A DNA stretch of 64,000 nucleotides, taken from Candidatus Methanomethylophilaceae archaeon. Its GTDB lineage: Archaea > Thermoplasmatota > Thermoplasmata > Methanomassiliicoccales > Methanomethylophilaceae. Position numbers and translations under genes: made by a program. Each line of letters opens with the position of its first letter. Within the stretch, counting starts at the first letter, position 1. Positions 13,516 to 48,645 of the stretch are shown one piece after another. Under the pieces are notes generated by a model. It was not told the origin of the DNA. It ran no database searches and worked only from the letters and a program-made list of their open reading frames with translations. The stretch spans positions 224,001-288,000 of the forward strand of contig JBMNHS010000001.1 of NCBI GenBank assembly GCA_050950505.1, read 5' to 3'.

Positions 13516-14019
13516 TTATGCAGTCAGATTTTTGATGATGGGAAGAACCCCTACGATAAACACCAAAATACTGCCGACAAGACACAGGTATGTGCCGATG
13601 CCGTAACCCACGGAACCGCCCAGGAGCGATCCGCCGGAAGCGCCGGTGTCCAACCAAACCATAAAGAGTATGGATACCACAAGCAGAACGACGGAAATCA
13701 CAATGGCCACAATACCGAGAATTCCTTCGGTCTTGGCACCGCCGAGATATTTACTGGGCACAACAGAGATTATCAATGCGATGATTGCGAGAATCAGCGC
13801 TATCAGAGGCACCATGTTCTGCCATGCATCTTTATCCTGCAGATATTCGCCGTCAAAGAATTGCATTCCCGTGTATCCGGTTGTTTCAGACGCACCCAAT
13901 ACCGTAACGGTGACATCAGCCCAAGAAAGGAAGAATGCCACTATAACCAGAATCGCACCCACTATCCCAATGAATTGGAATGCAGAGAACGGTCCAACTT
14001 TTTTATCTAAGAAAGACAT
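13516..14019 (-). CDS. Four-TM hypothetical membrane protein
   Basis: 167-aa ORF with four hydrophobic segments; FFLSW and YTG motifs. Confidence 0.75.
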   Translation of the reverse strand: MSFLDKKVGPFSAFQFIGIVGAILVIVAFFLSWADVTVTVLGASETTGYTGMQFFDGEYLQDKDAWQNMVPLIALILAIIALIISVVPSKYLGGAKTEGILGIVAIVISVVLLVVSILFMVWLDTGASGGSLLGGSVGYGIGTYLCLVGSILVFIVGVLPIIKNLTA

Positions 14020-14267
14020 ATTTTTCCATCCTGATAAGATGCACTAAGCATCCCATCCAGGAGTGTAAACGGTATTTGTTTTTTATAAGCTTATTGACGA
14101 AGTTGACAGAAAACAGGATAAAATGACGGGATATATTCCAGACGTGGCTTAAAAAATAGATTAAAAAAATATGCCAATATGTTTACTCTATTTGTCGAAA
14201 ATCAGTGTCGTGTCCTATTCATTCTTGCCATTAAGATATAAATATCGAAGGCCCTCTAAAATATTCT

Positions 14268-16355
14268 ATGCGCAGTAGTGAATCGATGTTAGATTATTTC
14301 TTCAAACAGAATCATTTCGAAATACCGCTATACCAACGAACCTATGACTGGAAAAAAAGAAACTGCGAGATTCTTTTTGATGATATCCTCGACATACACA
14401 AAGTGTCAGAGATGCCAGGGTCCGAGGGTAAATACAAAAAGCATTTCTTCGGCATAGTGATTTGTCTGATAGATCAGCAAACGGGGCATCGCGCAATCAT
14501 AGACGGGCAACAAAGAGTTACATCCGTGGCATTACTGCTGGCCGCCATAAGGGATGCTGTCCTTGATGAGAAGATTGAATCTGAAGATGACAGGCTTGCA
14601 AGTAAAATCGATCGCAGGCTGAAGGATCAGGATTACGGCACGGTCTTCATAAAGCCCATCGAAAAAGACAGAATCGTGTATGATGCCATAATGACTCACG
14701 ACATCATACTCGACGAATATGCGGGATCCAATATTCTGATTAATTACAATTACTTTAAAGAGAGGGTTTTGAAACTGGATGATATAACGATAGACCAGTT
14801 TATCGAGTGTCTGGATAATCTGTATATCGTTCCCATCCACCTAAGCAGTCTGGACGACGATGCGCAAAAGGTCTTTGAGAGTATCAATTCCACCGGATTG
14901 AGTCTGACCGAGGGCGATAAGATTCGCAACTATATGCTCATGAATCACAGCCCTGCCGATCAAGAACGGTATTACAAACGGTATTGGACGAAAATAGACG
15001 ACGGAGCTATAGACACCACCAGATTCATCAGGGATTACCTTACGGCAGGTACGGGAAACATCCCCAGGTTGAATAACGTATATGATGATTTTAAAAAATA
15101 TGCGAAATTCCGCAGAATCACCGAAGAAGCATTCGTGGAACTGTTCGAAGAGTTGGTGCAGTATTCCCGATATTACCATAATCTTCAGGAAAATAATCTG
15201 AATCACATATCGGAAAACGCGTCCCTGTTAATGTTCAGAATAAATTACCAAAGAGCCACGGTCGTATATCCGTTCATAATGAAGATTCTGAACTACCATG
15301 AAACCGGCAACCTTACTGACGAAGAGGTTGTTGATGTACTGGGTGTAATAGAGAATTATATTTTACGAAGAGCCATCTGCAAACTGCCCACGAACACCTT
15401 GAATAAGGTCTTCAGCGGCATATTCTATTCTTTGATTAGGGACGATTCGGGCGGTTTTGCCGAGAGATTCAAATATTCTTTGCTCAGAAGAGAGGGTACT
15501 GCCAGATACCCCAGAGATGAGGAGGTGTTTTATCACCTGACAGAAACGGATCTGTACAATACCCGTACCGTTTGCACTCATGTTTTGGCAACGATAGAGC
15601 ACGCTAACAGAGATTCCCAGGACACTCTGGAACGAATAGAGGACGGTAAATTGACAGTGGAACACGTTATGCCGCAGACCCTTTCGAAAGAATGGATCGG
15701 ACACCTGGGAGAAAATTACAGAGAAGTTCACGATGTGTGGCTGCACAGACTGGGCAACCTTACCCTGACCGCGTACAACAGCAAATACAGTAACAAATCG
15801 TACGAATTCAAACGCAATTTGGAAGATTCTGGATTCCGGGAAAGCAGACTGTGGCTGAACCGCATAATGGCGGAAAGCGAGACGTGGACCGAAGATAGGA
15901 TCCGCGAACGGAACACGATTCTTGCTGACAGATTTTTAAAGGTTGTGCCGGAACTTGTCACTTCGTATGAAGCGCCCATTGCTGTCGACGATTCAGTCAT
16001 ATATTCCTTGGAAGAAGCGGATAATGAATTTTATGGAATACAGGTCACAGGGTTCTTGTTCGACGGCGAAAGGTATGCCGCCAGAAGTGCGATTGATGCC
16101 TATACCCAGATTTTGAGAATGTTTTATGATCAGGATCCCGTCAAATTCACAACCCTGATGAATGAAAAAGGAAGCAGTCTATGGATGAGTTCCGACTCTG
16201 TCAAGGCCAAGGCATGGGGATATGATGAAATTGCTCCGGGAGTTTGGACAAGTAAAGATATGGATAATCCGAGAAAGGCAAGATTTTTGAGACAATTTGC
16301 CGCTTTCTTTGGTATGGAATTCGATGACATTGCATTCATCGTCAAAGGTAAATGA
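14268..16355 (+). CDS. GmrSD-like (DUF262 + DUF1524 HNH) modification-dependent restriction nuclease
   Basis: IPLYQRTYDW, IDGQQR, FESINSTG, VEHVMPQ, RLGNLTL; extra C-terminal domain. Confidence 0.85.
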   Translation: MRSSESMLDYFFKQNHFEIPLYQRTYDWKKRNCEILFDDILDIHKVSEMPGSEGKYKKHFFGIVICLIDQQTGHRAIIDGQQRVTSVALLLAAIRDAVLDEKIESEDDRLASKIDRRLKDQDYGTVFIKPIEKDRIVYDAIMTHDIILDEYAGSNILINYNYFKERVLKLDDITIDQFIECLDNLYIVPIHLSSLDDDAQKVFESINSTGLSLTEGDKIRNYMLMNHSPADQERYYKRYWTKIDDGAIDTTRFIRDYLTAGTGNIPRLNNVYDDFKKYAKFRRITEEAFVELFEELVQYSRYYHNLQENNLNHISENASLLMFRINYQRATVVYPFIMKILNYHETGNLTDEEVVDVLGVIENYILRRAICKLPTNTLNKVFSGIFYSLIRDDSGGFAERFKYSLLRREGTARYPRDEEVFYHLTETDLYNTRTVCTHVLATIEHANRDSQDTLERIEDGKLTVEHVMPQTLSKEWIGHLGENYREVHDVWLHRLGNLTLTAYNSKYSNKSYEFKRNLEDSGFRESRLWLNRIMAESETWTEDRIRERNTILADRFLKVVPELVTSYEAPIAVDDSVIYSLEEADNEFYGIQVTGFLFDGERYAARSAIDAYTQILRMFYDQDPVKFTTLMNEKGSSLWMSSDSVKAKAWGYDEIAPGVWTSKDMDNPRKARFLRQFAAFFGMEFDDIAFIVKGK

Positions 16356-16413
16356 ATCATATGGGTACAATCCATTGAGAAAATTGACAGAATTATTACG
16401 GAGTTGATTTACT

Positions 16414-18313
16414 ATGCCCGATAAGCTTAATATGCACACAAAAAACGCCACTCAAGAAAATATTGAAAGGATTGGCGCTTTGTTTCCCAATTGTATAGTC
16501 GAAGCGGCTGACGAGGGGGGGGGGGTTAGACGCTTTATTGATTTCCAAAGTCTAAAACAAGAGCTATCGGAAGACCTCGCACCGGACTCACGGGAAAGAT
16601 ACCAGTTTACTTGGCCGAATAAATCTGAACATAGAGCTCAGACGAATCATCAAGTTTCAGAAACTTTAAGACCTTATCCGGAAGAGAGCGTGGAATTTGA
16701 TAAAACAGAAAATCTCTACATAGAGGGGGACAATCTAATAGCGTTAAAACTTCTCAGAGAAACCTATCTGAATAAAATTGACGTGATATACATAGATCCT
16801 CCATACAATACAGGCAATGATTTTGTTTATAGGGATGACTTTACTATCAGTGATTCCGAATATCTCGACGTCAACGGAACTTATGACGTGGAAGGTAACC
16901 GATTATTCAGAAACACAAACACCAACGGAAGATTTCATACTGATTGGTTGAACATGATGTATCCGCGGCTCCGGCTTGCCAGGGATTTATTATCAGAAGA
17001 AGGAGTTATTTTCATATCGATTGATGATAACGAATTTAAAAATTTGAGAAATATATGCGATGAGATATTCGGAGAAAATAATTTTGTTGCGACCGTAATC
17101 TGGGAAAGGGCATTTTCTCCAGTGAATTTAAAAAGACATTTTTCTGAGAGTCATGATTATATTGTGGCATATGCCAAATCAGTCGATAATCTAATATGTA
17201 ACGGATTACCACGGGATGAGAAGGCGGACAACAGATATTCCAATCCGGACGAGGATTCCAGGGGGCCATGGGCTTCGAGTGATTTGTCCGTGGGACCTGC
17301 AATAGAGGCGAATATATACGAAATTGTAACTCCTTCCGGAAGAGTTGTTATGCCGCCCAGCGGATACAGTTGGCGTCTGAGTAAAAAACGATATTCCGAA
17401 TTCTTGAAGGAGGGGCGCATATGGTTTGGATCTGACGGGAGCGGAGTCCCTCGAATAAAACGATTCTTGTCTGAAGTGAAGCAGGGAATCACTCCCATGA
17501 CGATATGGAAACATCAAGAAGTAGGGCATTCGCAAAAAGCTAGTCAGGATTTGAAAGCGTTATTTGATGGTAAATCATTCTTCACATATCCTAAACCTGT
17601 GGAACTAATAAAGAGAGTATTAATGCTCTATTCCGACAAAGAATCTCTAATATTGGATTTCTTTTCAGGTTCTGCGACCACTGCACATGCAGTCATGAAC
17701 CTTAACACAGAAGATGGAGGCAGAAGAAGATATATTATGATTCAACTGCCTGAGGAAACCGATAAAAAATCAGATGCATATAGGGCAGGATTTGAAAATA
17801 TCTGCGAAATAGGCAAAGAACGTATCCGTATAGCGGGGAAACAACTAATTGAGAAAAATTCCGAACAGCGAACGCTGACCGATGAAGATATTCCCCATGG
17901 CACAGACATAGGATTCAGAGTCCTTAAAATTGACAGTTCCAATATGAAGGATGTTTATTATGCTCCAGATAAAACCTTCAAACGTGGCCTGGATGAACTT
18001 TTGGATAATGTCAAAGAAGATTCGGACTCCCGAAGATCTGCTGTTCCAGGTAATGTTGGAACTCGGTATCGATCTATCTTCGATAATCGAAGAATATACC
18101 ATCGACGAAAAGAAGGTACTCAGCGTCGACGAGGGTTACCTTATTGCGTGTTTTGATAAGAACGTTTCAGAGAATGTTGTTACAGAAATTGCAAAGAAGA
18201 AACCACATTATGCTATAATGAGGGACAATTCCATGTCCGATGACAATGTAGCAGTCAACTTTGAACAGATATTCAAAACATACAGCCCCGATACCGTCAG
18301 AAGAATTCTGTGA
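16414..18313 (+). pseudogene. mod: Type III R-M Mod methyltransferase copy 1 (G11 tract in frame; +1 T frameshift at about 18021)
   Basis: IEGDNL, DPPY, DFFSGSATT; C-terminal part continues in the 17951..18313 frame; GAAGATTCGGACT vs GAAGATCGAACT/GAAGATCGGACC in paralogs. Confidence 0.85.
16515..16525 (+). repeat. Poly-G tract G11 in mod1 (in frame)
   Basis: GAC GAG GGG GGG GGG GTT AGA. Confidence 0.9.
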
Positions 18314-18358
18314 TTTAAAACGAGATGTGTTAATTACATCTACAGAGTTGATTCTTAC

Positions 18359-20267
18359 ATGTCAGATAAACTCGATATGCATACAAAGAATATCATTCAG
18401 GAAAATATTGAGAAAATTGGTGCGCTGTTCCCCCATTGCGTCACCGAAGCGACTGATGAACACGGAGAAATCAGACAGCTTATCGATTTCGAAAGTTTGA
18501 GACAGGAGTTATCAGAAGATCTTGTATCGAATATGAATGAAAGATATCGATTTATTTGGCCTGATAAATTAAAATTCCAAAATCTTGCGAATGAGCCCGT
18601 TAGTAAAACTCTGAGACCTTATAGGGATGAAAGTGTAAATTTCGATAACACTCGCAACCTGTACATAGAAGGAGATAACCTGGATGTGCTGAAACTTCTA
18701 AGGGAAACTTACCTGAATAAGGTGCATGTAGTGTACATAGATCCACCCTACAATACAGGCAACGACTTCGTGTACAAAGACAATTTTAAAATTAGCGGCC
18801 CAGAATTTGAAAACGTGAGCGGACTTCGTGATGAGGAGGACAATAAACTTTTCCGGAATACGGATTCCAACGGAAGATTCCATACTGACTGGCTCAATAT
18901 GATGTACCCTAGGCTTAAGTTGGCCAGAGACTTGCTTAATGATGAGGGTTTGATTTTGATATCGATTGATGAGAATGAATCACATAATTTAAAAAAAATT
19001 TGTGACGAACTCTTCGGAGAACGGAACTTTATAGGAGATGTGGTCCGAAAAACTAAGAGTATGACGGGAGACAGTGGTGTCGGATTTAACCTACAGCACG
19101 AGTATTTGCAGATTTATGCCAAAGATATAAACCGCGTAGCGCTACGTGGTGAAGAAAAGGATTTCAAAAATTATTCGAATCCCGACGATGATGTCAATGG
19201 AGATTGGTGCCCCGGCGACCCCAGTGCAAAAAGTGGTGGCAATTCGACTTATTTTCCTATTGCTAACCCTCATACTGGTAAGATTGACTATCCTCCGAAG
19301 GGGCGGTATTGGGCATTTTCTAAAACTACGCTTGAAAGATATGTCGATACAGGTAGAATAAAATTCAAAGAAGCACACTCCGACAGGGAAAGAGGATTCG
19401 TATTTAAGAGATACAAGAAGGATATTGTCGAATCGTTCAATCCCGTTAACAGTCTCTTTGCAATTGAAAATGAATTTATGAACAGCGGAGCTACTGCCGA
19501 ATTGAGTAGATTGTTTGACGGAGCCTTGTTCGACTATCCGAAACCAGTTGGATACATAAAGGCCCTACTCGAGTATACGACAGATAAGGATTCAATCATT
19601 CTTGATTTCTTCTCCGGTTCTGCAACAACTGCTCATGCCGTCATAGAGCTGAACACTGAAGACGGGGGCGATAGGAAATACATTATGATCCAATTGCCTG
19701 AAGAAACCGATAAAAAATCGGATGCGTACAAAGCGGGATTTCATAATATTTGTGAATTGGGCAAAGAGCGAATTCGTCGTGTCGGAGAGCAGTTGGGGGG
19801 GGGGGGGGGGGGGCTGTAAGCAACAAAAATTGGTTGGCGAGTGCCTTTTCAAAGATACAGATGTTGGTTTTAGAGTCTTGAAAGTCGATAGTTCCAACAT
19901 GAAGGATGTGTACTATACGCCAGACAAAACTTTCAAACACGGCCTGGACAAACTTTTGGATAATGTCAAAGAAGATCGAACTCCCGAAGATCTACTGTTC
20001 CAGGTAATGTTGGAACTTGGCGTCGAATTGTCTTCAACGATACAGGAATATACCATTGACGGAAAGAGAGTCTTCAGCGTCGACGAGGGTTACCTTATTG
20101 CATGTTTTGATATGGACGTTTCAGAAAATGTAGTTATAGAAATTGCAAAAAGTAATCCACATTATGCAGTGATGAGGGATAATTCCATGTCTAACGATAG
20201 TGTAACCATAAACTTTGAACAGATTTTCAAAACATACAGTTCTAAGACTATCAGAAGAATTCTATGA
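18359..20267 (+). CDS. mod: Type III Mod copy 2, frameshifted at a G19 tract (putatively phase-variable)
   Basis: DPPY and DFFSGS in 18359..19819; C-terminal domain (GFRVLKVDSSNM...RRIL) in another frame after the G-run; G18 or G21 restores the frame. Confidence 0.85.
19795..19813 (+). repeat. Poly-G tract G19 in mod2 (out of frame)
   Basis: CAGTT(G)19CTGTAAG; in-frame TAA immediately after the tract. Confidence 0.9.
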
Positions 20268-20289
20268 TTAACAACAAAGTCCTGATTAC

Positions 20290-20354
20290 AAACTCTCTAG
20301 TGTATATAATAAAAAAACGGGATAGTTTAATACTGTCTATAGAGTTGATTCCTT
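20290..20354 (+). promoter_or_regulatory. Cassette promoter/RBS duplicated upstream of mod3 and mod4
   Basis: GTATATAA-A-run-GGATA.TTTAATAC..TCTATAGAGTTGATTCCTTATG also occurs at about 22250-22306; GAGTTGATT precedes all four mod ATGs. Confidence 0.6.
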
Positions 20355-22219
20355 ATGTCCGATAAGCTCTATATGCGTACAAAGAACATCACTCAGGAAA
20401 ATATTGAGAATATAGGTGCACTATTCCCTCATTGTATTACAGAAATAACCGCCGGGGGGGGGGGGTTAGGCACGTTATTGATTTTGAATGTTTGAAGCAG
20501 GAATTGTCGGAAGACATCGTATCGGATGTTAGGGAGAGGTATCAATTTACGTGGCCAGATAAAATCAAATCAAAAATTCTGGCAAATAGTCCCATTTCTA
20601 AAACTTTGAGACCGTGTCGAGAAGAGAGCGTGAATTTTGATGACACTAAAAATCTCTACATCGAAGGCGACAATTTGGATGCGTTAAAACTTCTTAGAGA
20701 AACTTACCTCAGTAAGATAAAGATGATTTATATAGATCCTCCATACAACACAGGAAATGATTTCGTGTATAGTGACAGGTTTACAAGTACTATAGATGAA
20801 TACAAGAAAAGAGGAAACGAATACGACGATATTGGAAACAAACTTTTCAAAAACACCGACACGAACGGCAGATTTCATACAGATTGGTTGAATATGATGT
20901 ATCCCCGGCTCAGATTGGCAAGAGACCTCTTATCTGACGACGGAGTTTTATTCGTATCAATAGACGATAATGAGGCTCATAATTTAAGAAAAATTTGCGA
21001 CGAGGTATTTGGAGAGGGAAATTTCATTGCACAAATTTGCCATAAATCTAGAGCCTCGATATCGAATGATAAAATTATATCTCAGAATCATAACATAATA
21101 ATGTTTTATGCAAAGAGTCATGAACACATCCATACGAATAGAAGATATATCGGGCTTGATCCCAACTTAGACGGGTTCGATATGGATGACAATGATGGAC
21201 AGGGACCCTATCGTCTTGTACCTGTAGATGGGCCTGGTGGGGCAACTAAAGGCAACCCTTACTATGAATTCCTGGGAATAGAAAATTTTTGGCGATTTTC
21301 AAAATCCACAATGCAGGAAAAGTATGACGAAGGGCATATAGTGAAAAGAGGAAACGGCCTATCTCAAAAATACTATCTTTCAGTCGCTAAAGAAAGGAGG
21401 CGGACTGATAATACCTGGTGGGATGATGGGGGTTTAACATCTACAGCGACTTCGAGACTGAGGAAACTTATGGGAAATAAGAGTTTTGACACTCCTAAGC
21501 CCGTAGAATTGATTAAACGAATGTTAAAGCTTGTTACATTTTTTGATAAAGATTCTACAATACTTGATTTTTTTTCCGGTTCTGCAACAACGGCCCATGC
21601 TGTTATGGAGCTGAACTCGGAAGACGGCGGTAACAGAAAATATATCATGATTCAGTTACCGGAAAAGACTGATGAAGAGTCTGATGCTTATTTGTCGGGC
21701 TATAAGAATATCTGCGAAATCGGTAAGGAGCGTATACGTCGTGCAGGGAAACTCATACTGGAAGAGAGTGAGCAACATAGATTAACCGCCAATGGTTTTT
21801 CAAAGGATTTAGATGTCGGGTTCCGAGTTTTGAAAATCGACAGTTCCAACATGAAGGACATATACTACATGCCGGACGAAACTTTCAAACACGGCCTAGA
21901 CGAACTTTTGGATAATGTCAAAGAAGATCGGACCTCCGAAGATTTACTCTTTCAAGTAATGCTGGAACTTGGTGTGGAACTGTCTTCGACCATTGAGGAA
22001 TACGTCATAGACGAAAAGAAGGTGTTTGGTGTCGACGAGGGGTATCTTATTGCATGTTTTGATGATAACGTTTCAGAAAACGTGGTTACGGAAATTGCAA
22101 AAAGAAGACCGTATTATGCGGTGATGAGGGATAATTCAATGTCTGATGACGGCGTGGCAGTCAATTTTGAGCAGATTTTCAATACATACAGTCCCGAAAC
22201 CATCAGGAGAATTCTGTAA
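20355..22219 (+). CDS. mod: Type III Mod copy 3, frameshifted at a 5' G12 tract (putatively phase-variable, OFF)
   Basis: True start ATG 20355 (MSDKLYMRTKNITQENIE, homologous to paralogs); the G12 run leads to an early TGA; G13 restores the frame and exact alignment length. Confidence 0.85.
20454..20465 (+). repeat. Poly-G tract G12 in mod3 (out of frame)
   Basis: ACC GCC (G)12 TTAGG; homologous position to the mod1 G11 tract. Confidence 0.9.
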
Positions 22220-22303
22220 TCGATGACTCAAGTAGTGCTGACTCCCTCTGAAGTATATAAAAAAAATAGGATACTTTAATACAATCTATAGAGTTGATTC
22301 CTT

Positions 22304-24262
22304 ATGTCCGATAAACTCGATATGTATACGAAAAATATCACCCAAGAAAATATTGAGAAGATTGGTGCATTATTTCCCCATTGCGTTACAGAAACAATTG
22401 ATGAGCAGGGGAGGGGCAGGCAGCTTATTGATTTTGAATGTTTGAAGCAGGAATTATCAGAATATATCGTATCGGACGTTAAGGAAAGATATCAGTTCAC
22501 ATGGCCGGATAAGACCGAATCTAAGCTTCAGTCTAACAGACCTATAAATAAAACTTTGAGGCCTTATCGAGAAGAAAGCATAGAGTTTAGCAAGACTGGG
22601 AATTTATACATAGAAGGGGACAACCTAGATGTGTTGAAACTTCTTAGAGAGGCTTACCTGGGTAAAGTGAAAATGATATATATCGACCCCCCGTACAACA
22701 CAGGCGATGATTTTCTTTACAAAGACAATTTTAAAATGAGTGTTTCTGAATATCAATCAGTAGAAAATTTGTACGATTCGGAAGGAAATATGTTATTTCG
22801 AAATGCTGATTCGAATGGACGATTTCATACAGATTGGTTAAACATGATGTACCCTCGATTGCGCATTTCGAGAGATCTGTTATCTGAAGATGGAGTTATA
22901 CTCGTAAGTATAGATGACCGTGAAGTTAGTAATGTTAGAAAAATAATGGACGAGATATTTGGAAAGCAGAACTTCATAGCTCAATTTATTTGGAAGAAGA
23001 AAGCGGGGGGCGGATCCGACTCTCGATATGTTGCAGTAGATCATGAGTATGTTTTGGTGTATGCGAAAGATGAGTCCGTACAGGATAAATGGACTATGCC
23101 CATGACTGAAGTTCAGAAATCCAGCTATAGACTTAAAGACTCCAATTATGACATATACGGTCCATATAAACTTAAGAATCTGCATCAGACCGGTATTGAT
23201 AGTAATAGGCCTAATCTGAATTACCCTATCACATGTCCAGACGGGTCTGAATTGTGGCCTCCCACAATATGGAGATGGTCCAAAGAAACTTTTGATAAAG
23301 CTCTTTCCAATGATGAGGTAGAATTTGTTCAAAATAGGAAAGGGGATTGGTCTGTGCATAGTAAGATGTACTTAAATAAAGATGGGGGTGAGTACGAAGT
23401 TAAACCACGAAGTATACTCATTGATGCAGGATACACGCGCGATGGAAAAAAGGACTTGATAGATATATTTGGGATTTCGATCTTTGATTATCCTAAGCCT
23501 GTTAAATTGATAAAATTATTTTTAGACATAATTTCGCGCAAAGATGGAGATATCGTATTAGACTTTTTTGGAGGTTCGTCCACGACTGCTCATGCGGTTA
23601 TGGAGTCTAATTACGAAAACGCCATTAATCGTAAATTTATAATGGTTCAATTGCCTGAAAATCTCGACTATATGAGTGATGTTGTCAGGGGTCATTCTAA
23701 AAAAACCATATCGGATGCCGTTAAGCTCTTAGATTCCATAGGAAAACCTCGAATCTTGACTGAAATTGGAAAGGAGCGTATCCGTCGTGTAGGCGATAAG
23801 CTATCACGTGAAGGGTATCAATGTAATCTTATTGATGATGTTAGAAAGGGCTACGATATAGGTTTTAGAGTCCTGAAGATAGACAGTTCCAACATGAAGG
23901 ACATATACTACACGCCGGACAAAACCTTCAAACACGGCCTGGACGAACTTTTGGATAATGTCAAAGAAGACCGAACTCCCGAAGATCTATTGTTCCAGGT
24001 AATGTTGGAACTTGGTGTTGATTTGTCTTCAAAAATTGAAGAACATTCCGTAGATGAAAAGAAAATCTTTAGCGTCGACGAGAATTATCTTATTGCATGT
24101 TTTGATGTAGGTGTATCGGAAAATGTTGTTACGGAAATCGCAAAGAAGAAGCCTCATTACGCCGTAATGAGAGACTATTCCATGTCCAACGATAACGTTG
24201 CAGTCAACTTTGAACAAATTTTCAAAACATACAGCCCCGAAACCATTAGAAAGGTGATTTGA
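22304..24262 (+). CDS. mod: Type III Mod copy 4 (intact)
   Basis: 652 aa; DPPY, FDYPKP, DFFGGSSTT; interrupted G-rich stretch (CAGGGGAGGGGCAGG) at the tract position; stop overlaps the res start. Confidence 0.92.
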   Translation: MSDKLDMYTKNITQENIEKIGALFPHCVTETIDEQGRGRQLIDFECLKQELSEYIVSDVKERYQFTWPDKTESKLQSNRPINKTLRPYREESIEFSKTGNLYIEGDNLDVLKLLREAYLGKVKMIYIDPPYNTGDDFLYKDNFKMSVSEYQSVENLYDSEGNMLFRNADSNGRFHTDWLNMMYPRLRISRDLLSEDGVILVSIDDREVSNVRKIMDEIFGKQNFIAQFIWKKKAGGGSDSRYVAVDHEYVLVYAKDESVQDKWTMPMTEVQKSSYRLKDSNYDIYGPYKLKNLHQTGIDSNRPNLNYPITCPDGSELWPPTIWRWSKETFDKALSNDEVEFVQNRKGDWSVHSKMYLNKDGGEYEVKPRSILIDAGYTRDGKKDLIDIFGISIFDYPKPVKLIKLFLDIISRKDGDIVLDFFGGSSTTAHAVMESNYENAINRKFIMVQLPENLDYMSDVVRGHSKKTISDAVKLLDSIGKPRILTEIGKERIRRVGDKLSREGYQCNLIDDVRKGYDIGFRVLKIDSSNMKDIYYTPDKTFKHGLDELLDNVKEDRTPEDLLFQVMLELGVDLSSKIEEHSVDEKKIFSVDENYLIACFDVGVSENVVTEIAKKKPHYAVMRDYSMSNDNVAVNFEQIFKTYSPETIRKVI

Positions 24263-27200
24263 TGGAATTCAAATTTAAAATACAGAAATTCCAAACCGAT
24301 GCCGTCAACAGTATTGTTGAAGTATTCGATGGGCAGGAATCAGAAGGAGGGCTTGTGTATAGACATGACAAAGGTACCAAAACCCAATACAGATTCGATA
24401 CTGAATCCGGTGCCTTCGATTCCGAGGGTATTGCATACGGTAACAAACCTGTGTCTTTGAGTGACGAAGAACTTCTGAAAAACATAATATCGATTCAGAA
24501 TAAAAACGGAATAGTTCCATCAAAAATATTAGATAAAACTCTCGGGAGATGCTCACTGGATGTTGATATGGAAACAGGAACGGGAAAAACATACGTTTAC
24601 ACCAAAGCCATGTTCGAACTGAACAAAAAGTACGGATGGAGCAAATTCATCATTGTTGTTCCCAGCATAGCGATAAGAGAAGGCGTAAAAAAATCATTAG
24701 AAATCACTCAAAACCACTTTATGGAACATTACGGTAAAAAAATCCGTCATTATGTTTATGATTCATCGAGACTCCACGACATAGACGATTTTTCTCAGAG
24801 GTCAGACGTATGCGCCTTAATAATCAATTCTCAGGCATTCGCGACTTCTCTGAAAAAAGACGGAAAAAGCAAAGCCAGCAGAATCATCTATTCCGAAAGA
24901 GATGATTTCGCATCTCGCCGTCCGATTGACGTGATAGCCGCAAACAATCCCATTCTTATCTTGGACGAACCTCAAAAACTCAGCGGAAAGGCCACCCAAG
25001 AGGCCCTGAAAGAAGAATTTAACGCCCTGTTTTCAATTAACTTCTCGGCAACGCACAGAGTTGTTCATAACAAAATATACGGCTTGGACGCTTTGGACGC
25101 TTTTAACAAGAAATTAGTTAAAAAAATCGAGGTCAAAGGTATTGAAGTCAGCGGAGTCACGGGTGCTGACAAATACGTTTACCTCGAAGATATAATACTC
25201 GACCCGAAGAAACCTCCGAGGGCAAAGGTCGAAATCGAATTTAAACGTAAAACCTCGGAACCCGGAAGGAAAACCATTCTTTTGGACGAGGGGGACAGCC
25301 TCTATATTCACTCAAATGAACTCGAGGCTTACAAAGGTTTGACTTTGATTGAAATTGATGCTATCAATGGAGAAATCAGACTGAGCGACGGTACCGAAAT
25401 CATCAAAGGGGAAGTCATAGGAGACATAACCGAAGATAACCTCCGGCGCATACAGATCCGCGAAGCCGTTTCATCACACTTTGAAAAAGAAAGAACCCTG
25501 TTCCCTCAGGGAATAAAATGTCTGAGTCTGTTCTTTATAGACTCCGTGGCAAAATACCGTCAATACGATGAAGACGGCGAAGAACTCCTCGGAGAATATG
25601 GCATAGTGTTCGAAGAGGAGTATAACAGATACTTAAGGGAAAATTCAGACAGATTTGACGAGAGTTATGCCAAGTATATTACTGGTATACCGGTGGAACA
25701 GACTCATAACGGATACTTCAGCATAGATAAACAGAAACGCGCAATAGACAGTACGGAAAAAAGAGAAGGCGGCTCCGATGATGTGGACGCTTACGATTTA
25801 ATAATGAAAAATAAAGAACGTCTTTTAAGTTTCAATGAAAAAACCCGATTTATCTTCTCGCATTCTGCGCTTAGGGAGGGCTGGGACAATCCCAATATAT
25901 TCCAGATTTGCGCCCTGAAGCATACGGACAGCACCACTTACCTCCGCCAGGAGGTTGGAAGAGGTTTGCGGTTATGCGTTGATCAGGAAGGGACCAGAAT
26001 GGATCTCGAAACCTGCGGAGATAATATCCACGAATTGAACACACTTACCGTTGTGGCAAGCGAAGGGTACGATACCTTCGTACAGGCGCTTCAGAAGGAT
26101 ACTTTGAACTATATTTCTGATAAACCCGTAAAGGTAACTCCGAAATATTTCATAGACAGAAAATTTTTCACGGAAGACGGGGAAGTCATCATAGACGAAG
26201 AAACTTCGACCGAGATATACTTCTACCTAGTTGAGAACAGATTCGTGGATTCCAAAGGATCCATCACAGAAACCTGCAAAGGGGTATTGACGGAAGAAGG
26301 CATTCTTCCGGACCTCCCTGAGAAATTTGCACATATTCAGACAGAACTTACGAACCTTGTGCTTGCGGCATCCGAGAACCGTGATCCCGCATCACTGTAT
26401 TCCGACGGTCGCAGACCCAAGGTCAGGAATGACAGACTCAATGATAATTTCTACAGGAAAGAATTCCAAACATTATGGAATAATATCAACAATAAGTACG
26501 TTTATTCCGTATCATTCGACAGTGACGAACTGATTGAAAAATCCGTGGCTTCGATAAACAAACATCTCAACGTTCCAAGGTCCAGCTACACGGTAAAGAA
26601 GGGCTCACAGGCGGACCAGATGACAAAAGACGATGTTTCCAAAGGAACATCATTCACCGACAGAAGCACCCGCACCGACACACTTGACAGCATCGGATCA
26701 GAGGTACCCCGGGACCTGGTCGGAGAAATCGCCAAAGGAAGTACACTTACAAGACGCACCGTGGTTAAAATTCTGAAAAACATGACGGATGAAAAATTTA
26801 ACCTGTACAAACTGAATCCCGAAATGTTTATCCAAAAAATGATAGAACTTATCAACGAACAAAAGGCCACAATCATAGTCAGTCATATCTCATACAGCAA
26901 GACGGATGGTCAATTCGACAACGATATCTTCACGGTAAGCAAACCCGAGACTGATTTTGAAAAAGCTTTCCATGCGGAGAAACACATCTTGGATTATGTA
27001 TTCACGGACGGAATCGCGGAAAAAAGCGTTGAACGGAAATTCGTTGAGAATCTGGATATTGACGAAGACGTGTGCGTTTACGCAAAATTACCGACCGCAT
27101 TCTACATACCCACACCCGTAGGGAACTATACCCCGGACTGGGCCATCGCTTTTAACGAAGGTACCGTAAAACACATCTATTTCATAGCCGAAACAAAGGG

Positions 27201-27345
27201 CTCAATGAGTTCCATGCAGCTTCGCGCAATAGAAAAAGCCAAAACCGAATGCGCCGAAAAACTGTTTGACAACATCTCCACAATCGATGTGAAATATTCG
27301 GTTGTCAGCGATTACGAAGAATTGCTCAAAATCGTAAAGGGATGA
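24262..27345 (+). CDS. res: Type III restriction endonuclease Res subunit
   Basis: METGTGKT, DEPQ, SALREGWD, QEVGRGLR, C-terminal YTPDWAI...AETKG PD-(D/E)XK motif; TGATG overlap with mod4. Confidence 0.93.
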   Translation: MEFKFKIQKFQTDAVNSIVEVFDGQESEGGLVYRHDKGTKTQYRFDTESGAFDSEGIAYGNKPVSLSDEELLKNIISIQNKNGIVPSKILDKTLGRCSLDVDMETGTGKTYVYTKAMFELNKKYGWSKFIIVVPSIAIREGVKKSLEITQNHFMEHYGKKIRHYVYDSSRLHDIDDFSQRSDVCALIINSQAFATSLKKDGKSKASRIIYSERDDFASRRPIDVIAANNPILILDEPQKLSGKATQEALKEEFNALFSINFSATHRVVHNKIYGLDALDAFNKKLVKKIEVKGIEVSGVTGADKYVYLEDIILDPKKPPRAKVEIEFKRKTSEPGRKTILLDEGDSLYIHSNELEAYKGLTLIEIDAINGEIRLSDGTEIIKGEVIGDITEDNLRRIQIREAVSSHFEKERTLFPQGIKCLSLFFIDSVAKYRQYDEDGEELLGEYGIVFEEEYNRYLRENSDRFDESYAKYITGIPVEQTHNGYFSIDKQKRAIDSTEKREGGSDDVDAYDLIMKNKERLLSFNEKTRFIFSHSALREGWDNPNIFQICALKHTDSTTYLRQEVGRGLRLCVDQEGTRMDLETCGDNIHELNTLTVVASEGYDTFVQALQKDTLNYISDKPVKVTPKYFIDRKFFTEDGEVIIDEETSTEIYFYLVENRFVDSKGSITETCKGVLTEEGILPDLPEKFAHIQTELTNLVLAASENRDPASLYSDGRRPKVRNDRLNDNFYRKEFQTLWNNINNKYVYSVSFDSDELIEKSVASINKHLNVPRSSYTVKKGSQADQMTKDDVSKGTSFTDRSTRTDTLDSIGSEVPRDLVGEIAKGSTLTRRTVVKILKNMTDEKFNLYKLNPEMFIQKMIELINEQKATIIVSHISYSKTDGQFDNDIFTVSKPETDFEKAFHAEKHILDYVFTDGIAEKSVERKFVENLDIDEDVCVYAKLPTAFYIPTPVGNYTPDWAIAFNEGTVKHIYFIAETKGSMSSMQLRAIEKAKTECAEKLFDNISTIDVKYSVVSDYEELLKIVKG

Positions 27346-27357
27346 GACGGTGAAAGG

Positions 27358-30300
27358 ATGGAGATCCTGAACAACATCGACAGGAAACTGGGGGACGACC
27401 TCAAAGAAACGATTGTCGAAGGAAGCGATGTTAGCATAGCGTGCGAACGATTCTCCATCTATGCATACCAGGCATTGATGGGTCAGCTCAATAAAATACA
27501 CTCGATCAGATTTATTTTTACTTCGCCCACTTTCATAAAAGAAGAAAACGTCAAAGAGAAAAGAGAATTCTATATTCCGAGACTTTCCAGGGAAAGAGGA
27601 ATTTACGGAACGGAATTTGAAGTTAAGCTAAGAAACGAACTGACCCAAAAAGCGTTGGCAAAACGATGCGGGGATTGGATTCGTCACAAGGCCGAATTCC
27701 AATCGAACATAACGGAAAGGTCTATGAACAATTTCCTGAACATCGATTACGGCGATTCTGGCTACTCCTATTCCGGCATCAGAGGATTTACTACTACGGA
27801 TCTGGGTTATGAAAAAGGAGATGCCCTGACCAATCTTGTAAATAAAAATACCTTCAATGAAAGCAGAATGTATCTGGATCATTTCAACTACTTGTGGAAT
27901 GACAAAGAAAACATGCAAAATGTGAAGGACGAGGTTCTGAAACGTATTTCCACGGCATACGCCGAAAATTCTCCCGAAGCCCTTTATCACGTAACTTTGT
28001 ACAATATATTCAAAAAATATCTCGATGAATTATCCTCGGACAATCTTCCGAAAGAAGAAGTCGGATTGAAAGATTCGGTCATCTGGAACAAACTGTACAC
28101 CTTCCAGAAAGATGCCGTCATGGCCGTAATCAATAAACTGGAAACGTACAACGGATGCATCCTCGCCGACAGTGTGGGTCTCGGTAAAACCTTCACCGCA
28201 TTGGGCGTAATCAAATATTACGAAAACAGAAACGACCGTGTTCTGGTCCTTTGTCCCAAAAAACTATCCGAAAACTGGAAAGTGTTCCGGGAAAACTACA
28301 GGAATAACCCAGTTGCCGAAGACCGATTCGGTTACGACGTATTGCATCATACCGACTTATTGAGGGAAAGAGGAGAATCCAACGGTATTAATCTGGCACG
28401 TATAAATTGGAGCGGATATCAACTCGTGGTTATAGACGAATCCCATTATTTCAGAAACGGAGAAACCAGTGCCATAGAAGGAACGGATAACAGATACCAA
28501 CGGCTTCTTAAGGAAGTAATCCGCAAAGGAACCAAAACCAAAGTGCTGATGCTATCGGCCACTCCGGTAAACAACCAGTTTACGGATCTCTACAATCAGC
28601 TTAGAATCGCGTACGAGGGCAACGCCGAAAAAATGGACAGAAATCTAGAAGTCAGTACGTCAATAAAAAGGATATTCTCGGATGCGCAAGGAGCCTTCAA
28701 CCGATGGAAAGAATATGACCCGGAACACCGTACCACGGACAATCTGTTGAAATTATTGGATGATGATTTCATAAACGTTTTGGACAGTTTGACAATTGCC
28801 CGCTCCCGTCGCCACATAGAGCAATATTACGGTACAAAGGACATCGGAGAATTTCCGAAACGGTTGCCGCCCAAATCACTGAGTCCCGGCATATCCGAAA
28901 CGCCCGGCACCATATCATTTTCCGAAATATACAATACACTCGAAAAATTGAACCTTCAGGTATATATGCCGACGAATTTCGTCCTTTCAAGTAAATTAAG
29001 CAAATATGTCAGTTCTGAAACCAATATAAGCCGTGCAGGAAGAGAAAAAGGAATTCGGAGTTTGATTTCGATCAACCTCTTGAAGAGATTGGAAAGCTCG
29101 ATTTATTCTTTTGAAAAGACTTTGAAAAAAGTAAGAAATTACATTATCAATACCATAGATGCTATCGAGGACCACATTAAAGGAAAAAAGACTGGCACAT
29201 TAGAATACGAAATAGACGAAGATTTGATGGATGACGAAGACAGCTTCAACGCGTTCGAACAGAACGTAGGCATAAAATTGGAAGACATGGATTATCTTTC
29301 GTGGCGTATGTACCTGGAAGAGGACCTGAATCTTTTAGACGGATTGTTGGAAGAAACCTGCAAAATTACTCCGGATGTCGATTACAAACTGAGTGTGCTG
29401 AAGGATGAAATACGCAACAAAGTTAAAAATCCCATAAACCCCGGAAACAGAAAAATCCTCATCTTCTCCGCTTTTGCGGATACTGCGACATATCTTTATG
29501 ACAATCTTGCGGATGATTTGAAGAAACACGGTTTGAACGTTGCAATGATTACAGGTTCCGCAGACGGAAGAAACACAATCAAAGGCCTGAGAAATGATTT
29601 CAATGACATCCTGACCTGTTTCTCCCCCGTGTCGAAAGATATGAATGTGTTGATGCCGGAAATGAAAGAAGAAATTGATATTCTGATAGGCACCGATTGT
29701 ATCTCGGAAGGTCAAAACCTTCAAGACTGCGACTATTGCATCAATTATGACATACACTGGAATCCCGTGAGAATTATTCAGAGATTCGGAAGAATAGACC
29801 GTATCGGGAGTAAGAACGACTGTGTCCAACTTGTGAACTTCTGGCCTGACATTGAGCTTGACGAGTACATCAATCTGAAAGAAAGAGTCGAAACCAAAAT
29901 GAAAATGACCGTGATGACTTCGACCGGGGACGATAACGTTTTAGATCCCAAGGACGAGGGGGATTTGGATTACAGAAAACAGCAATTGAAGAGGCTTCAC
30001 AACGAAATAGTGGAAGTCGAAGAAATGCAATCCGGTATATCCATCACGGATCTGGGTATTCATGAATTCAGAATCGAATTACAAAGGTACGTGGAAGAAA
30101 AAGGAGACTTGGATCTTATACCGTACGGACTTCACGCAGTCGTTCCGTCCGAGAACAGTATGCCCCCTGGAACGATATTCGTTTTGAAAAACATAAACAA
30201 GAATGTTGATATTGAGGGTAAAAATCGTCTGCATCCGTATTATCTCGTTTACATACTGGATGACGGAGATGTTTTTATTGACCATCTGTCCCCCAGAAAA

Positions 30301-30564
30301 ACATTGGAACTTATGAGACGTTCGTGCAAAAAACACACCGAACCGTTGATGGAATTGTGTGAATTGTTCAACAATGCCACGAATGACGGCAAAAACATGG
30401 CAACCGTGTCGGGAATGCTGAGTAATTGTATAAACTCCATAGTCGAAAAGAAAGAACAGGCCAACCTGGATTGTTTCCTCAAAGGCGACAATGTCAGTTT
30501 CCACGACATAAAGAAGAGCGGTCTTGATGATTTCGAACTTGTCAGTTTCCTGGTCGTGATATGA
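27358..30564 (+). CDS. SNF2-like helicase with N-terminal PLD-like domain (R-M associated)
   Basis: LADSVGLGKT, VIDESH, LSATP, SEGQNLQ, QRFGRIDR. Confidence 0.85.
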   Translation: MEILNNIDRKLGDDLKETIVEGSDVSIACERFSIYAYQALMGQLNKIHSIRFIFTSPTFIKEENVKEKREFYIPRLSRERGIYGTEFEVKLRNELTQKALAKRCGDWIRHKAEFQSNITERSMNNFLNIDYGDSGYSYSGIRGFTTTDLGYEKGDALTNLVNKNTFNESRMYLDHFNYLWNDKENMQNVKDEVLKRISTAYAENSPEALYHVTLYNIFKKYLDELSSDNLPKEEVGLKDSVIWNKLYTFQKDAVMAVINKLETYNGCILADSVGLGKTFTALGVIKYYENRNDRVLVLCPKKLSENWKVFRENYRNNPVAEDRFGYDVLHHTDLLRERGESNGINLARINWSGYQLVVIDESHYFRNGETSAIEGTDNRYQRLLKEVIRKGTKTKVLMLSATPVNNQFTDLYNQLRIAYEGNAEKMDRNLEVSTSIKRIFSDAQGAFNRWKEYDPEHRTTDNLLKLLDDDFINVLDSLTIARSRRHIEQYYGTKDIGEFPKRLPPKSLSPGISETPGTISFSEIYNTLEKLNLQVYMPTNFVLSSKLSKYVSSETNISRAGREKGIRSLISINLLKRLESSIYSFEKTLKKVRNYIINTIDAIEDHIKGKKTGTLEYEIDEDLMDDEDSFNAFEQNVGIKLEDMDYLSWRMYLEEDLNLLDGLLEETCKITPDVDYKLSVLKDEIRNKVKNPINPGNRKILIFSAFADTATYLYDNLADDLKKHGLNVAMITGSADGRNTIKGLRNDFNDILTCFSPVSKDMNVLMPEMKEEIDILIGTDCISEGQNLQDCDYCINYDIHWNPVRIIQRFGRIDRIGSKNDCVQLVNFWPDIELDEYINLKERVETKMKMTVMTSTGDDNVLDPKDEGDLDYRKQQLKRLHNEIVEVEEMQSGISITDLGIHEFRIELQRYVEEKGDLDLIPYGLHAVVPSENSMPPGTIFVLKNINKNVDIEGKNRLHPYYLVYILDDGDVFIDHLSPRKTLELMRRSCKKHTEPLMELCELFNNATNDGKNMATVSGMLSNCINSIVEKKEQANLDCFLKGDNVSFHDIKKSGLDDFELVSFLVVI

Positions 30565-31169
30565 TTCTCGGGCTCCCCAAATCCACAAAGGTGTTCAATC
30601 AATTGCCGAAAAAGCAAATTTTCGAACAGTTCAGAGTATCTCCGAAAGAACGTAAAAGATTCGATGACGATATAGGCAGACTTGCCATTGTCAACGAGAT
30701 TTCACCGAAAACCGTTAATCTTGACAAAGGAACCAAAGTCGATTCCATATTCTTCGTAAGGATTGAACTGAAAAATAAAGAATACGACCGAAAGAATCTG
30801 ATTCTGATCAGTAAACTGATCGATCAAAGCATGATTTTCATTTTGGAATGGGAAGAACAGCAAAAGATAGCGGTTTACGAAACCGAACTCATCGAAAGTG
30901 ACTGGCACAATTCCGAAGACTTCAAGTTGAAAATTGAAGGTATCAATTTGGATTCGGTTTGGAATAATTTCATAATCGGGATCGGCGGGATTGTTCTCGA
31001 AGACGACAATACGCTTATTGAGCAGATATCGCTTGATACTGAACGAGAAAAGCTGCAGGAACGGATTGATGCTTTGGATAAGCGGGTACGGAAGGAAATG
31101 CAACCGAAGAAGAAAAGAGAATTGTGGGATGAGTTAAAGAGTTTAAGAAAGGAATTGGAAGGTTTGTGA
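30561..31169 (+). CDS. DUF4391-like protein
   Basis: GLPKST...LPKKQ N-terminus, C-terminal coiled coil KEMQPKKK; typical neighbour of this helicase and Type III R-M genes. Confidence 0.75.
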   Translation: MILGLPKSTKVFNQLPKKQIFEQFRVSPKERKRFDDDIGRLAIVNEISPKTVNLDKGTKVDSIFFVRIELKNKEYDRKNLILISKLIDQSMIFILEWEEQQKIAVYETELIESDWHNSEDFKLKIEGINLDSVWNNFIIGIGGIVLEDDNTLIEQISLDTEREKLQERIDALDKRVRKEMQPKKKRELWDELKSLRKELEGL

Positions 31170-48569: not shown

Positions 48570-48645
48570 TGGTGGGCCCGCCCAGATTTGAACTGGAGTT
48601 TCATACACCCCAAGCATGGAGGATACCAAGCTACCCTACGGGCCC
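48570..48645 (-). tRNA. tRNA-Pro(GGG), CCA encoded
   Basis: GGGCCCG acceptor stem, anticodon arm CATGC-TTGGGGT-GTATG, GTTCAAATC T-loop; follows rpoN. Confidence 0.93.

Follow-up and report, generated by a model that had tools for sequence, protein, structure and literature searches.

Organization of the array

The stretch of DNA analysed here, a 64-kb window (the term refers throughout to this whole stretch) from a 1.33-Mb genome of two contigs that is 99.6% complete, contains four consecutive genes for Type III DNA methyltransferases, mod1 to mod4, followed by a single gene for a Type III restriction subunit, res, all on the + strand. The host genome encodes McrA, and its nearest relatives, 88-96% identical, are metagenome-assembled genomes (MAGs) labelled Methanomethylophilaceae, Methanomassiliicoccaceae or Methanomassiliicoccales, in agreement with the archaeal host named in a preliminary description of the sequence. 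A profile search matches PF01555 in all four mod open reading frames (ORFs), with E values from 5e-39 to 9e-33. The mod1 cassette spans 16414..18313 (PF01555 E 4.7e-39), as delimited by three-frame translation. The mod2 cassette, at 18359..20267 (E 9e-33), has an N-terminal part in frame 0 (18359-19819) and a C-terminal part in frame +1 that ends at a stop codon at 20265-20267 and is 78% identical to residues 514-652 of Mod4. The mod3 cassette, at 20355..22219 (E 5e-36), begins with an ATG at 20355 and changes frame at a G-tract, its body corresponding to an ORF at 20432-22219. The mod4 cassette, at 22304..24262 (E 8.6e-37), is intact and encodes 652 amino acids, of which residues 2-650 match the PADLOC profile MTase_III (1.5e-211); in the PDB, Mod4 matches 6k0w_B (2e-63) and 4zcf_A, the EcoP15I Mod (4e-54). 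The res gene, at 24259..27345, encodes a helicase and endonuclease protein of 1028 amino acids (PF04851, PF19778) that is full length by comparison with the PADLOC profile REase_III (5.2e-282, profile positions 1-987 of 989). Its likely start is the ATG at 24262, which overlaps the TGA of mod4 (TGATG) and bears out the proposed coupling of mod4 to a single res. The order of the methylase motifs, and the helicase with a C-terminal endonuclease encoded beside mod, assign these genes by sequence to a restriction-modification (R-M) system of Type III.

In all four Mods the DPPY motif is invariant at positions 128-131, ahead of the target recognition domain (TRD), and FFSGS or FFGGS follows the TRD. 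Identity between the cassettes at the DNA level is 60-84% in the N-terminal part, 26-55% in the centre and 70-96% in the C-terminal part. Conserved ends around a diverged centre are, judging from the sequences, what is usual for Type III mod alleles that differ in their TRDs. The four tandem paralogs with common N- and C-terminal regions that the preliminary description reported are thereby confirmed, with flanks at 60-96% DNA identity and PF01555 in every copy; its wording that the central TRDs are unrelated goes too far, as their pairwise protein identity is 23-34%. The locus combines adjacent mods, conserved ends and different TRDs with a simple sequence repeat (SSR) in three of the four cassettes. 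Each cassette also has a conserved Shine-Dalgarno-like (SD-like) element, GAGTTGAT, 6-13 nt ahead of its ATG, located by eye at 16401-16408 for mod1, 18345-18352 for mod2, 20342-20349 for mod3 and 22291-22298 for mod4. The last two cassettes have in addition an A/T-rich, TATA-like run about 40-50 nt upstream, likewise read by eye (tatataataaaaaaa at 20303-20317 for mod3; 22253-22268 for mod4). These elements suggest that each cassette could be expressed separately.

Poly-G tracts and reading frames

The SSRs of the array are tracts of G that lie inside the mod ORFs and set their frame, as in contingency loci, and they occupy two positions. The G11 tract of mod1 (16515..16525) covers codons 34-37 (EGGGV), here termed the N-site, and is in frame, so that the cassette is ON in this respect. 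The G12 tract of mod3 (20454..20465) lies at the N-site as well and leaves the cassette OFF, with G13 or G10 corresponding to ON. The G19 tract of mod2 (19795..19813) lies at a second position, the linker site, 17 codons before VGFRVLK; this cassette is OFF and would be ON with a tract length divisible by three (18, 21). At the N-site of mod4 stands an interrupted G-run, GGGGAGGGGC. The features given in the preliminary description hold: the tract coordinates are exact, three-frame translation agrees on mod1 in frame and mod2 and mod3 out of frame, the mod3 tract sits at the position of the mod1 tract and is realigned with mod1 by G13, and the run in mod4 is interrupted.

Tracts of this kind are otherwise almost absent from the genome. 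These three are the only runs of at least nine G in the window, giving 18 overlapping 9-mer matches against 0.37 expected. Across the whole genome there are 21 G/C runs of length 7, none of length 8, and one each of lengths 9, 11, 12 and 19, so that the array holds three quarters of all G/C runs of at least 8 and the only coding ones. The fourth of these runs, a C9 outside the window (G000:C1:1020925-1020933), is intergenic; it lies between two convergent genes, in the loop of a GC-rich hairpin that is probably a terminator-like element. Other SSRs are unremarkable, with only (CA)6, (AT)6, (TTC)6 and (CCG)5, and homopolymers are strongly depleted, the longest A/T run being 9. The tract counts indicate that long homopolymers are avoided by this genome, except in three of the four mod cassettes. 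No match to either of two mismatch-repair families searched for, MutS domain V (PF00488) and the NucS C-domain (PF01939), was found in the 99.6%-complete genome, a result consistent with the avoidance of homopolymers and also with frequent slippage at the tracts that exist.

Tract lengths in related populations

Public sequencing runs from 14 studies carry the 8-kb array, and the assembled contigs of the four best were compared over positions 14000-28000 of the window. They derive from an anaerobic digester (X1, possibly the run from which the window comes), wastewater (X2), a landfill (X3) and another digester (X4), and in each of them long difference-free contig pieces show the same four-cassette locus. 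Contigs of X1 (record 1) and X2 (record 9) run gap-free across the mod1 G11 tract. At the mod3 tract, G12 in the window, the sole X2 contig that crosses it has G11 and is thus also OFF (6.29 of 6.29 by contig depth). For mod2, an exact protein look-up places the N-terminal part in a cluster with one Logan-derived protein, P0121, which has 4 substitutions in 478 residues (~99% identity) and reads EQLGGGAVSNKN… / …EQLGGGAVSNKNW… at the tract; with the flanking codons of the window this corresponds to ~G11 rather than G19, the other OFF frame, 8 bases apart. Two of the three tracts therefore differ in length between closely related populations, as expected of contingency loci. The preliminary description had named a single fixed tract length as the observation that would speak against switching, and this is not what mod2 and mod3 display between populations, with mod1 constant. 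For any one gene a single state is seen, mod1 being only ON and mod2 and mod3 only OFF.

Contig ends near the tracts were also considered. One X1 contig (record 3) begins with all 19 G of the mod2 tract, gap-free, and ends at 20464 inside the mod3 tract. None of the listed contig pieces of X1-X4 bridges G19, those of X1 ending at 19808 or starting at 19795, that of X3 ending at 19805 and that of X4 starting at 19808. Given the low depth and the difficulty of sequencing poly-G, this was rejected as a sign of heterogeneity. A contig start at 20476 common to three runs was likewise rejected as an effect of the tract, as a 31-nt stretch there is identical in mod3 and mod4, and contig depths were rejected as a measure of cell shares; the X2 contig that crosses the mod3 tract, for instance, has a depth of 6.29, and its neighbours have 11-14.5. 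The 24 listed runs that carry the array include no RNA run, a result that has no bearing on expression. From ~24197 to 28000, contigs of X2 and X3 have a divergent allele of the mod4 end, res and the following helicase gene, with many third-position-like differences and a contig depth far above that of the mod array; there may be an abundant relative that shares res and has other mod cassettes.

The same contigs bear on a second frameshift in mod1, which lies away from any G-run. By cassette alignment the window reads TT at 18021..18022 where the three paralogs have a single T, which puts the last 95 codons in frame +1, with a stop at 18311-18313. The base is lacking at 18021 in contigs of X1 (5.48 of 10.2 by depth), X2 (24.5 of 39.5) and X3 (17.5 of 24.5), and is present throughout in X4 (loss in 0 of 4.1). 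An X1 contig that ends at 18021 has three unaligned letters, as expected from the single-T form, and this form restores the mod1 frame (…VKEDRTPEDLLFQ…). The TT of the window is probably an assembly error or a minor variant. With the extra T missing in three runs, an intact mod1 is the most likely case, and its G11 makes it ON. The claim of the preliminary description that mod4 is the only intact copy has accordingly to be revised, since in three of the four runs examined mod1, too, is probably intact and ON.

Recurrence of the tract sites and origin of the array

The two tract positions recur in homologs. The comparison covers 160 homologous loci (2.09 Mb), comprising 80 listed loci from species-representative genomes and the best 80 of 587 metagenome relatives; identity reaches ~63% at best, and almost all of the loci belong to bacteria (among them Sphaerochaetaceae, Clostridium, Bacteroidales and Oscillibacter). 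For this purpose the N-site, the position of the mod1 and mod3 tracts, is taken as near codon 35, and the linker site, the position of the mod2 tract, as 8-20 codons ahead of the conserved GFRVLK. Ten G/C runs of at least 8 occur in the 160 listed loci, and seven of them are inside a mod at one of these sites: four at the N-site (G9 in the second mod of L033, G8 in L040, G9 in L060 and C9 in L105) and three at the linker site (G9 in L052, G9 in L169 and C9 in L179). With the sites covering 1.1% of the sequence, the binomial probability of seven in ten is 2.7e-12. Five of the seven homolog tracts are in frame (ON) and two out of frame (OFF). This recurrence supports the view that the tracts behave as hypermutable contingency sites.

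A match to Mod4 is present in 12 of 151 genomes of the host's archaeal family, this one included, and in 0 of 15 of the same genus. Comparison across related genomes had been proposed as a check in the preliminary description, and it reveals an SSR in mod in 3 of the 11 other matching archaeal genomes, namely G7 at the N-site in G116, G8 at the N-site in G094 and a dinucleotide repeated seven times near codon 82 in G048, all of them OFF. With three further genomes of the family bearing an SSR in mod, the strategy may be wider in Methanomassiliicoccales. In G048 (L197) the res gene is split, query residues 2-147 and 144-1028 lying in different frames, and in G116 (L196) the helicase gene is split in the same manner (query 1-135 and 127-1067); either could be decay or an assembly error.

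The array of four cassettes is the largest among the homologs, with at most two in the 160 listed loci. Near-identical copies are absent from the 80 listed metagenome loci (best 63%) and from the 80 listed genome loci. Protein searches with mod2 and mod3 return the window's own clusters and P0121 only, those with mod1 return no near-identical protein, and the exact protein look-up matched mod2 and mod4 only. The best outside matches of mod2 (66%) and mod1 (67%) are the JGI proteins P0002 and P0245, each with a longest contig of 18122 bases; the two may share one contig, which would then hold a further array in which these two TRD alleles are again paired.

Over their whole length, TRD included, the best bacterial matches of the cassettes are 66-68% identical, compared with 40-58% for the archaeal relatives, and this greater closeness to bacterial proteins suggests that the cassettes were transferred between domains. 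Around the array, GC content is low (0.39-0.43, compared with 0.49 for the genome), in a stretch between housekeeping genes that by its gene content is a predicted defence island.

Position of the tracts in the protein and selection on the cut-off segments

A structure model of Mod4, built from an alignment of 45 sequences, is of moderate confidence (mean predicted local distance difference test score, pLDDT, 69.9; predicted template-modelling score, pTM, 0.66). In this model the N-site (residues 33-37) forms a turn between strands 28-32 and 38-42, and the linker site comprises the end of a helix (485-506) and a low-confidence stretch (507-511) ahead of strand 521-528 of the C-terminal domain. 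In-frame changes of tract length would amount to glycines gained or lost in loops, and the protein plausibly tolerates this.

The segments cut off by the frameshifts contain no stops and no indels in their proper frame. The ratio of nonsynonymous to synonymous substitution rates (dN/dS) is 0.08-0.10 for the C-terminal 133 codons of mod2 against mod3 and mod4, 0.06-0.15 for the last 95 codons of mod1 against mod2, mod3 and mod4, and 0.07-0.09 for the first 31 codons of mod3 against mod2 and mod4. For comparison, the C-terminal 133 codons of mod3 and mod4, which are cut off in neither gene, give 0.062. By this estimate the cut-off segments are under strong purifying selection, with dN/dS of 0.06-0.15; as dS is saturated, the ratio describes long-term evolution and is silent on the most recent few thousand generations.

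A proposed switchable set of specificities and its alternatives

Taken together, these observations point, with a probability of about 0.65, to an SSR-switched Type III R-M locus of multiple specificities, in which three slipping Mods and a constitutive Mod4 serve one Res, translationally coupled to the last cassette, within a horizontally acquired island of a Methanomethylophilaceae-like methanogen. Slipped-strand mispairing at replication would change the tract length, and each cassette would independently gain or lose its reading frame, while mod4, having lost its tract, would be expressed constitutively. A population would then consist of cells with different sets of active Mods, with as many as 2^3 states in addition to Mod4; the state sampled in the window would be mod1 (G11) and mod4 ON and mod2 and mod3 OFF. 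Cleavage by Type III systems is ATP-dependent and requires a pair of inversely oriented unmethylated sites, and Mod hemi-methylates its sites. Type III Res recognizes DNA only through Mod, according to textbooks and PMC8259958, and each active Mod should therefore add a methylation motif and a restriction specificity. All four Mods likely fit the same Res because their N- and C-terminal parts are conserved, and different Mod sets would produce different methylation patterns and restriction specificities. From the arrangement we infer reversible switching within a lineage, expression of the cassettes, use of Res by Mod1-3, distinct motifs and an antiviral or regulatory benefit. Mixed Mod dimers are also conceivable.

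Several points weigh against this interpretation. The likely sharing of Res by Mod1-3 has the conserved N- and C-terminal parts as its sole basis, and a cell that turns on a further Mod while Res is active risks self-restriction at its still unmethylated sites. The mod1 tract is invariant, with G11 in the window, X1 and X2, and all four observed alleles of mod2 (G19, ~G11) and mod3 (G12, G11) are OFF, with no ON allele seen. The comparison draws on assembled contigs only and so describes lengths between populations and none within one population, and the tract length of P0121 is approximate, as derived from protein and not from DNA. At least one indel error, at 18021, is probable in the window assembly, whose own tract lengths may be off by one base. 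A stronger claim, that the locus is the first archaeal phase-variable R-M switchboard, in which three tracts and a constitutive cassette give up to eight reversible, heritable combinations through one Res, serving bet-hedging against archaeal viruses and possibly epigenetic regulation, perhaps with mixed dimers, is put forward tentatively and is on balance doubtful.

Of the other explanations, decay of the OFF cassettes is unlikely. It would make mod2 and mod3 dead or dying duplicates and the G-tracts knockout hot spots, leaving only mod4, and perhaps mod1, to work with Res. The uniformly OFF alleles of mod2 and mod3 would fit, as would the OFF state of all three SSR-bearing archaeal relatives and the split res and snf2 genes in G048 and G116, respectively. 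However, two thirds of all lengths are out of frame, which gives four OFF observations a chance of ~0.2, short of significance. The low dN/dS of the cut-off segments and their lack of stops and indels also argue against decay, as do the in-frame tracts at the same two sites in five bacterial homologs. Furthermore, 12 and 19 G exceed all seven homolog tracts (maximum 9 in the 160 listed loci), which speaks for expansion and maintenance of the tracts rather than decay. An assembly or sequencing artefact, with true tracts fixed in frame and all four mods constitutively ON, is highly improbable. The T at 18021, by which the window differs from the contigs of three runs, its possible source run among them, makes at least one indel error probable, but independent assemblies are also out of frame at mod3 (G11 in X2) and mod2 (~G11 in P0121), the X1 contig with all 19 G is gap-free from its start, and the mod1 tract is exactly G11 in X1 and X2. 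Long SSR tracts are prone to slippage, and 11-19 G would be so even if their lengths were miscalled.

Two further explanations are compatible with DNA-level switching, and as accounts of the array in their own right both are very unlikely, the second slightly more so. RNA-polymerase slippage or ribosomal frameshifting could tune expression by yielding low amounts of full-length Mod from OFF alleles, so that the tracts would determine dosage. The purifying selection on the cut-off segments fits such tuning as well as it fits switching, and transcriptional slippage on long homopolymers in bacteria offers an analogy, but the difference in DNA tract length between populations already provides a mechanism at the DNA level. 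Alternatively, recombination or gene conversion could move TRDs between cassettes or into the slot next to res, as happens in silent-cassette systems, with the array serving mainly as a TRD reservoir. Flanks of 60-96% DNA identity and the exact 31-nt stretch common to mod3 and mod4 could support such exchange, and the divergent res allele of X2 and X3 begins near 24197, at the mod4 end, without a match to the mod array. Against exchange, divergence in most of the flanks (60-85% identity) is too great for recombination to be frequent, neither a recombinase nor inverted repeats are seen beside the array, and all contig joints have sides of 20-39 letters at 90% likeness, and such short sides often come from other organisms. 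Joints between cassettes, such as 16831 to 20867 in X1 and X3, were rejected as proof of recombination in view of their short sides, which probably derive from homologs in other organisms.

Relation to known systems

Phase variation by SSRs has been treated as a bacterial strategy, mostly of host-adapted bacteria. Bacterial phase-variable mods mostly occupy separate single-mod loci, and their Res is often inactive in the pathogens. The switching locus proposed here resembles the modA, modB, modD, modH and modM phasevarions in its SSR within the mod ORF, ON/OFF control by frameshift and TRD alleles between conserved ends; those systems are bacterial and have a demonstrated regulon role. The Res encoded here looks intact, in contrast to the often inactive Res of the pathogens. 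In Streptococcus pneumoniae, the Type I hsdS genes reportedly switch among multiple cassettes by inversion or recombination of half-TRDs in the S subunits. That system shares with the present one the principle of a single machine with alternative specificity modules and several methylomes in a clonal population, and differs in using site-specific inversion or recombination in S subunits instead of SSR frameshifts in whole Mod genes.

The closest counterpart is found in Mycoplasma bovis. The survey of Atack et al. 2018 (PMC5909438) reports that 662 of 3805 mod genes contain SSRs and that a single genome can have as many as four independent phasevarions, and it describes three co-localised mods of M. 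bovis PG45 (M1/M2/M3.Mbo45ORF167P) with conserved ends, different TRDs and a GA[n] repeat at the same place in each. The authors propose duplication followed by TRD diversification and, in the same text, state that phase-variable expression of the GA[n]-bearing Mycoplasma mods was never shown (PMC5909438). Both loci have adjacent Type III mods with conserved 5′ and 3′ parts, a variable central TRD and an SSR. PG45 is a bacterium with three cassettes and GA[n] at one site, whereas the present locus belongs to an archaeon and has four cassettes, poly-G at two sites and one locked-ON cassette coupled to res. With the PG45 array on record, a tandem array of SSR-bearing mods is not new as a kind. 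Loci with two tandem mods (59-66% mutual identity) followed by one res also occur in Clostridium sp. CAG:452 (L033), Finegoldia magna (L065), an Eubacteriales MAG (L108) and a metagenome (L130). In these loci both mods are intact, and only one of the eight mods has a tract, the G9 near the N-site in the second mod of L033. The EcoP15I (4zcf) and 6k0w Mods match in sequence, and a Mod dimer with one Res, as described in PMC8259958, is the presumed working form; EcoP15I and 6k0w belong to systems with a single mod, no SSR and no snf2 or DUF4391 partners.

The preliminary description knew of no such array in an archaeon. As a general statement this needs qualification, since tandem SSR arrays (M. 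bovis PG45) and loci with two mods and one res exist in bacteria; for archaea, literature searches, which did not extend to the supplementary tables of Atack et al. 2018, found no phase-variable mod or multi-mod array among the papers listed. Neither 'archaea' nor 'methano' occurs in the accessible text of that survey (PMC5909438). In the accessible parts of two archaeal R-M surveys, PMC10609329 and PMC11033074, phase variation appears only in the introduction, with citations of bacterial surveys, or in the reference lists, and 12 of the 23 archaea passages of a 2026 review (PMC13076061), those consulted, name no archaeal phase-variable enzyme. What is new here is the archaeal host, the number of four cassettes, the homopolymer tracts at two sites, the locked-ON cassette coupled to an apparently intact Res, and partial evidence from populations.

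The locus and the three archaeal relatives with OFF-state SSRs in mod suggest that the same device is in use among methanogens that live in digesters, wastewater and landfill. If functional, the locus would be a compact natural model of how several Mods are served by one Res and how self-restriction is avoided when a new specificity turns on, and of virus-host arms races in archaea without canonical mismatch repair. For annotation, such cassettes should not be called pseudogenes, and methylome studies of Methanomassiliicoccales have reason to expect heterogeneous motifs.

Neighbouring genes

The island also contains a GmrSD-type Type IV enzyme upstream of the array (14268-16355). Downstream of res, on the + strand, are an SNF2-family helicase gene at 27358..30564 (PF00176/PF00271; PADLOC C3a139 'HKD+Snf2', 4e-127) and a gene for a DUF4391 protein at 30561..31169 (PF14335, E 1e-26) that overlaps the helicase stop. 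The res, snf2 and DUF4391 genes occur together in 77 of the 160 listed loci, many of which are clipped by contig ends. The order mod-res-snf2-DUF4391 is also found in the archaeal relatives G116, G095 and G070, and the order snf2-DUF4391-mod-res in the three bacterial two-mod loci; the contig of the fourth such locus, L130, begins at its first mod and shows neither snf2 nor DUF4391. Of three papers that mention DUF4391, the two with listed titles do not deal with R-M systems. Together, mod, res, snf2 and DUF4391 look like a four-gene system of which the two additional genes are uncharacterised.

A KAP/PifA-like nucleoside triphosphatase (NTPase) follows on the + strand at 31191-33419, as two ORFs in the same frame split by an in-frame TAG at 32031-32033. 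The two halves match positions 4-275 and 296-699 of the 720 positions of the PADLOC PifA profile. TAG terminates only 27 of 835 long ORFs in the genome, and in a Methanomassiliicoccales host this codon may be read as pyrrolysine or otherwise read through; ARAGORN listed no tRNA with a CUA anticodon. Downstream of the island lie a gene for a BspA-type leucine-rich-repeat protein of 942 amino acids (37327-40155, - strand), an ORF of 1745 amino acids (41801-47038, - strand) and an IS110-family transposase gene (47272-48390, + strand), and a tRNA-Pro gene is located at 48570-48645.

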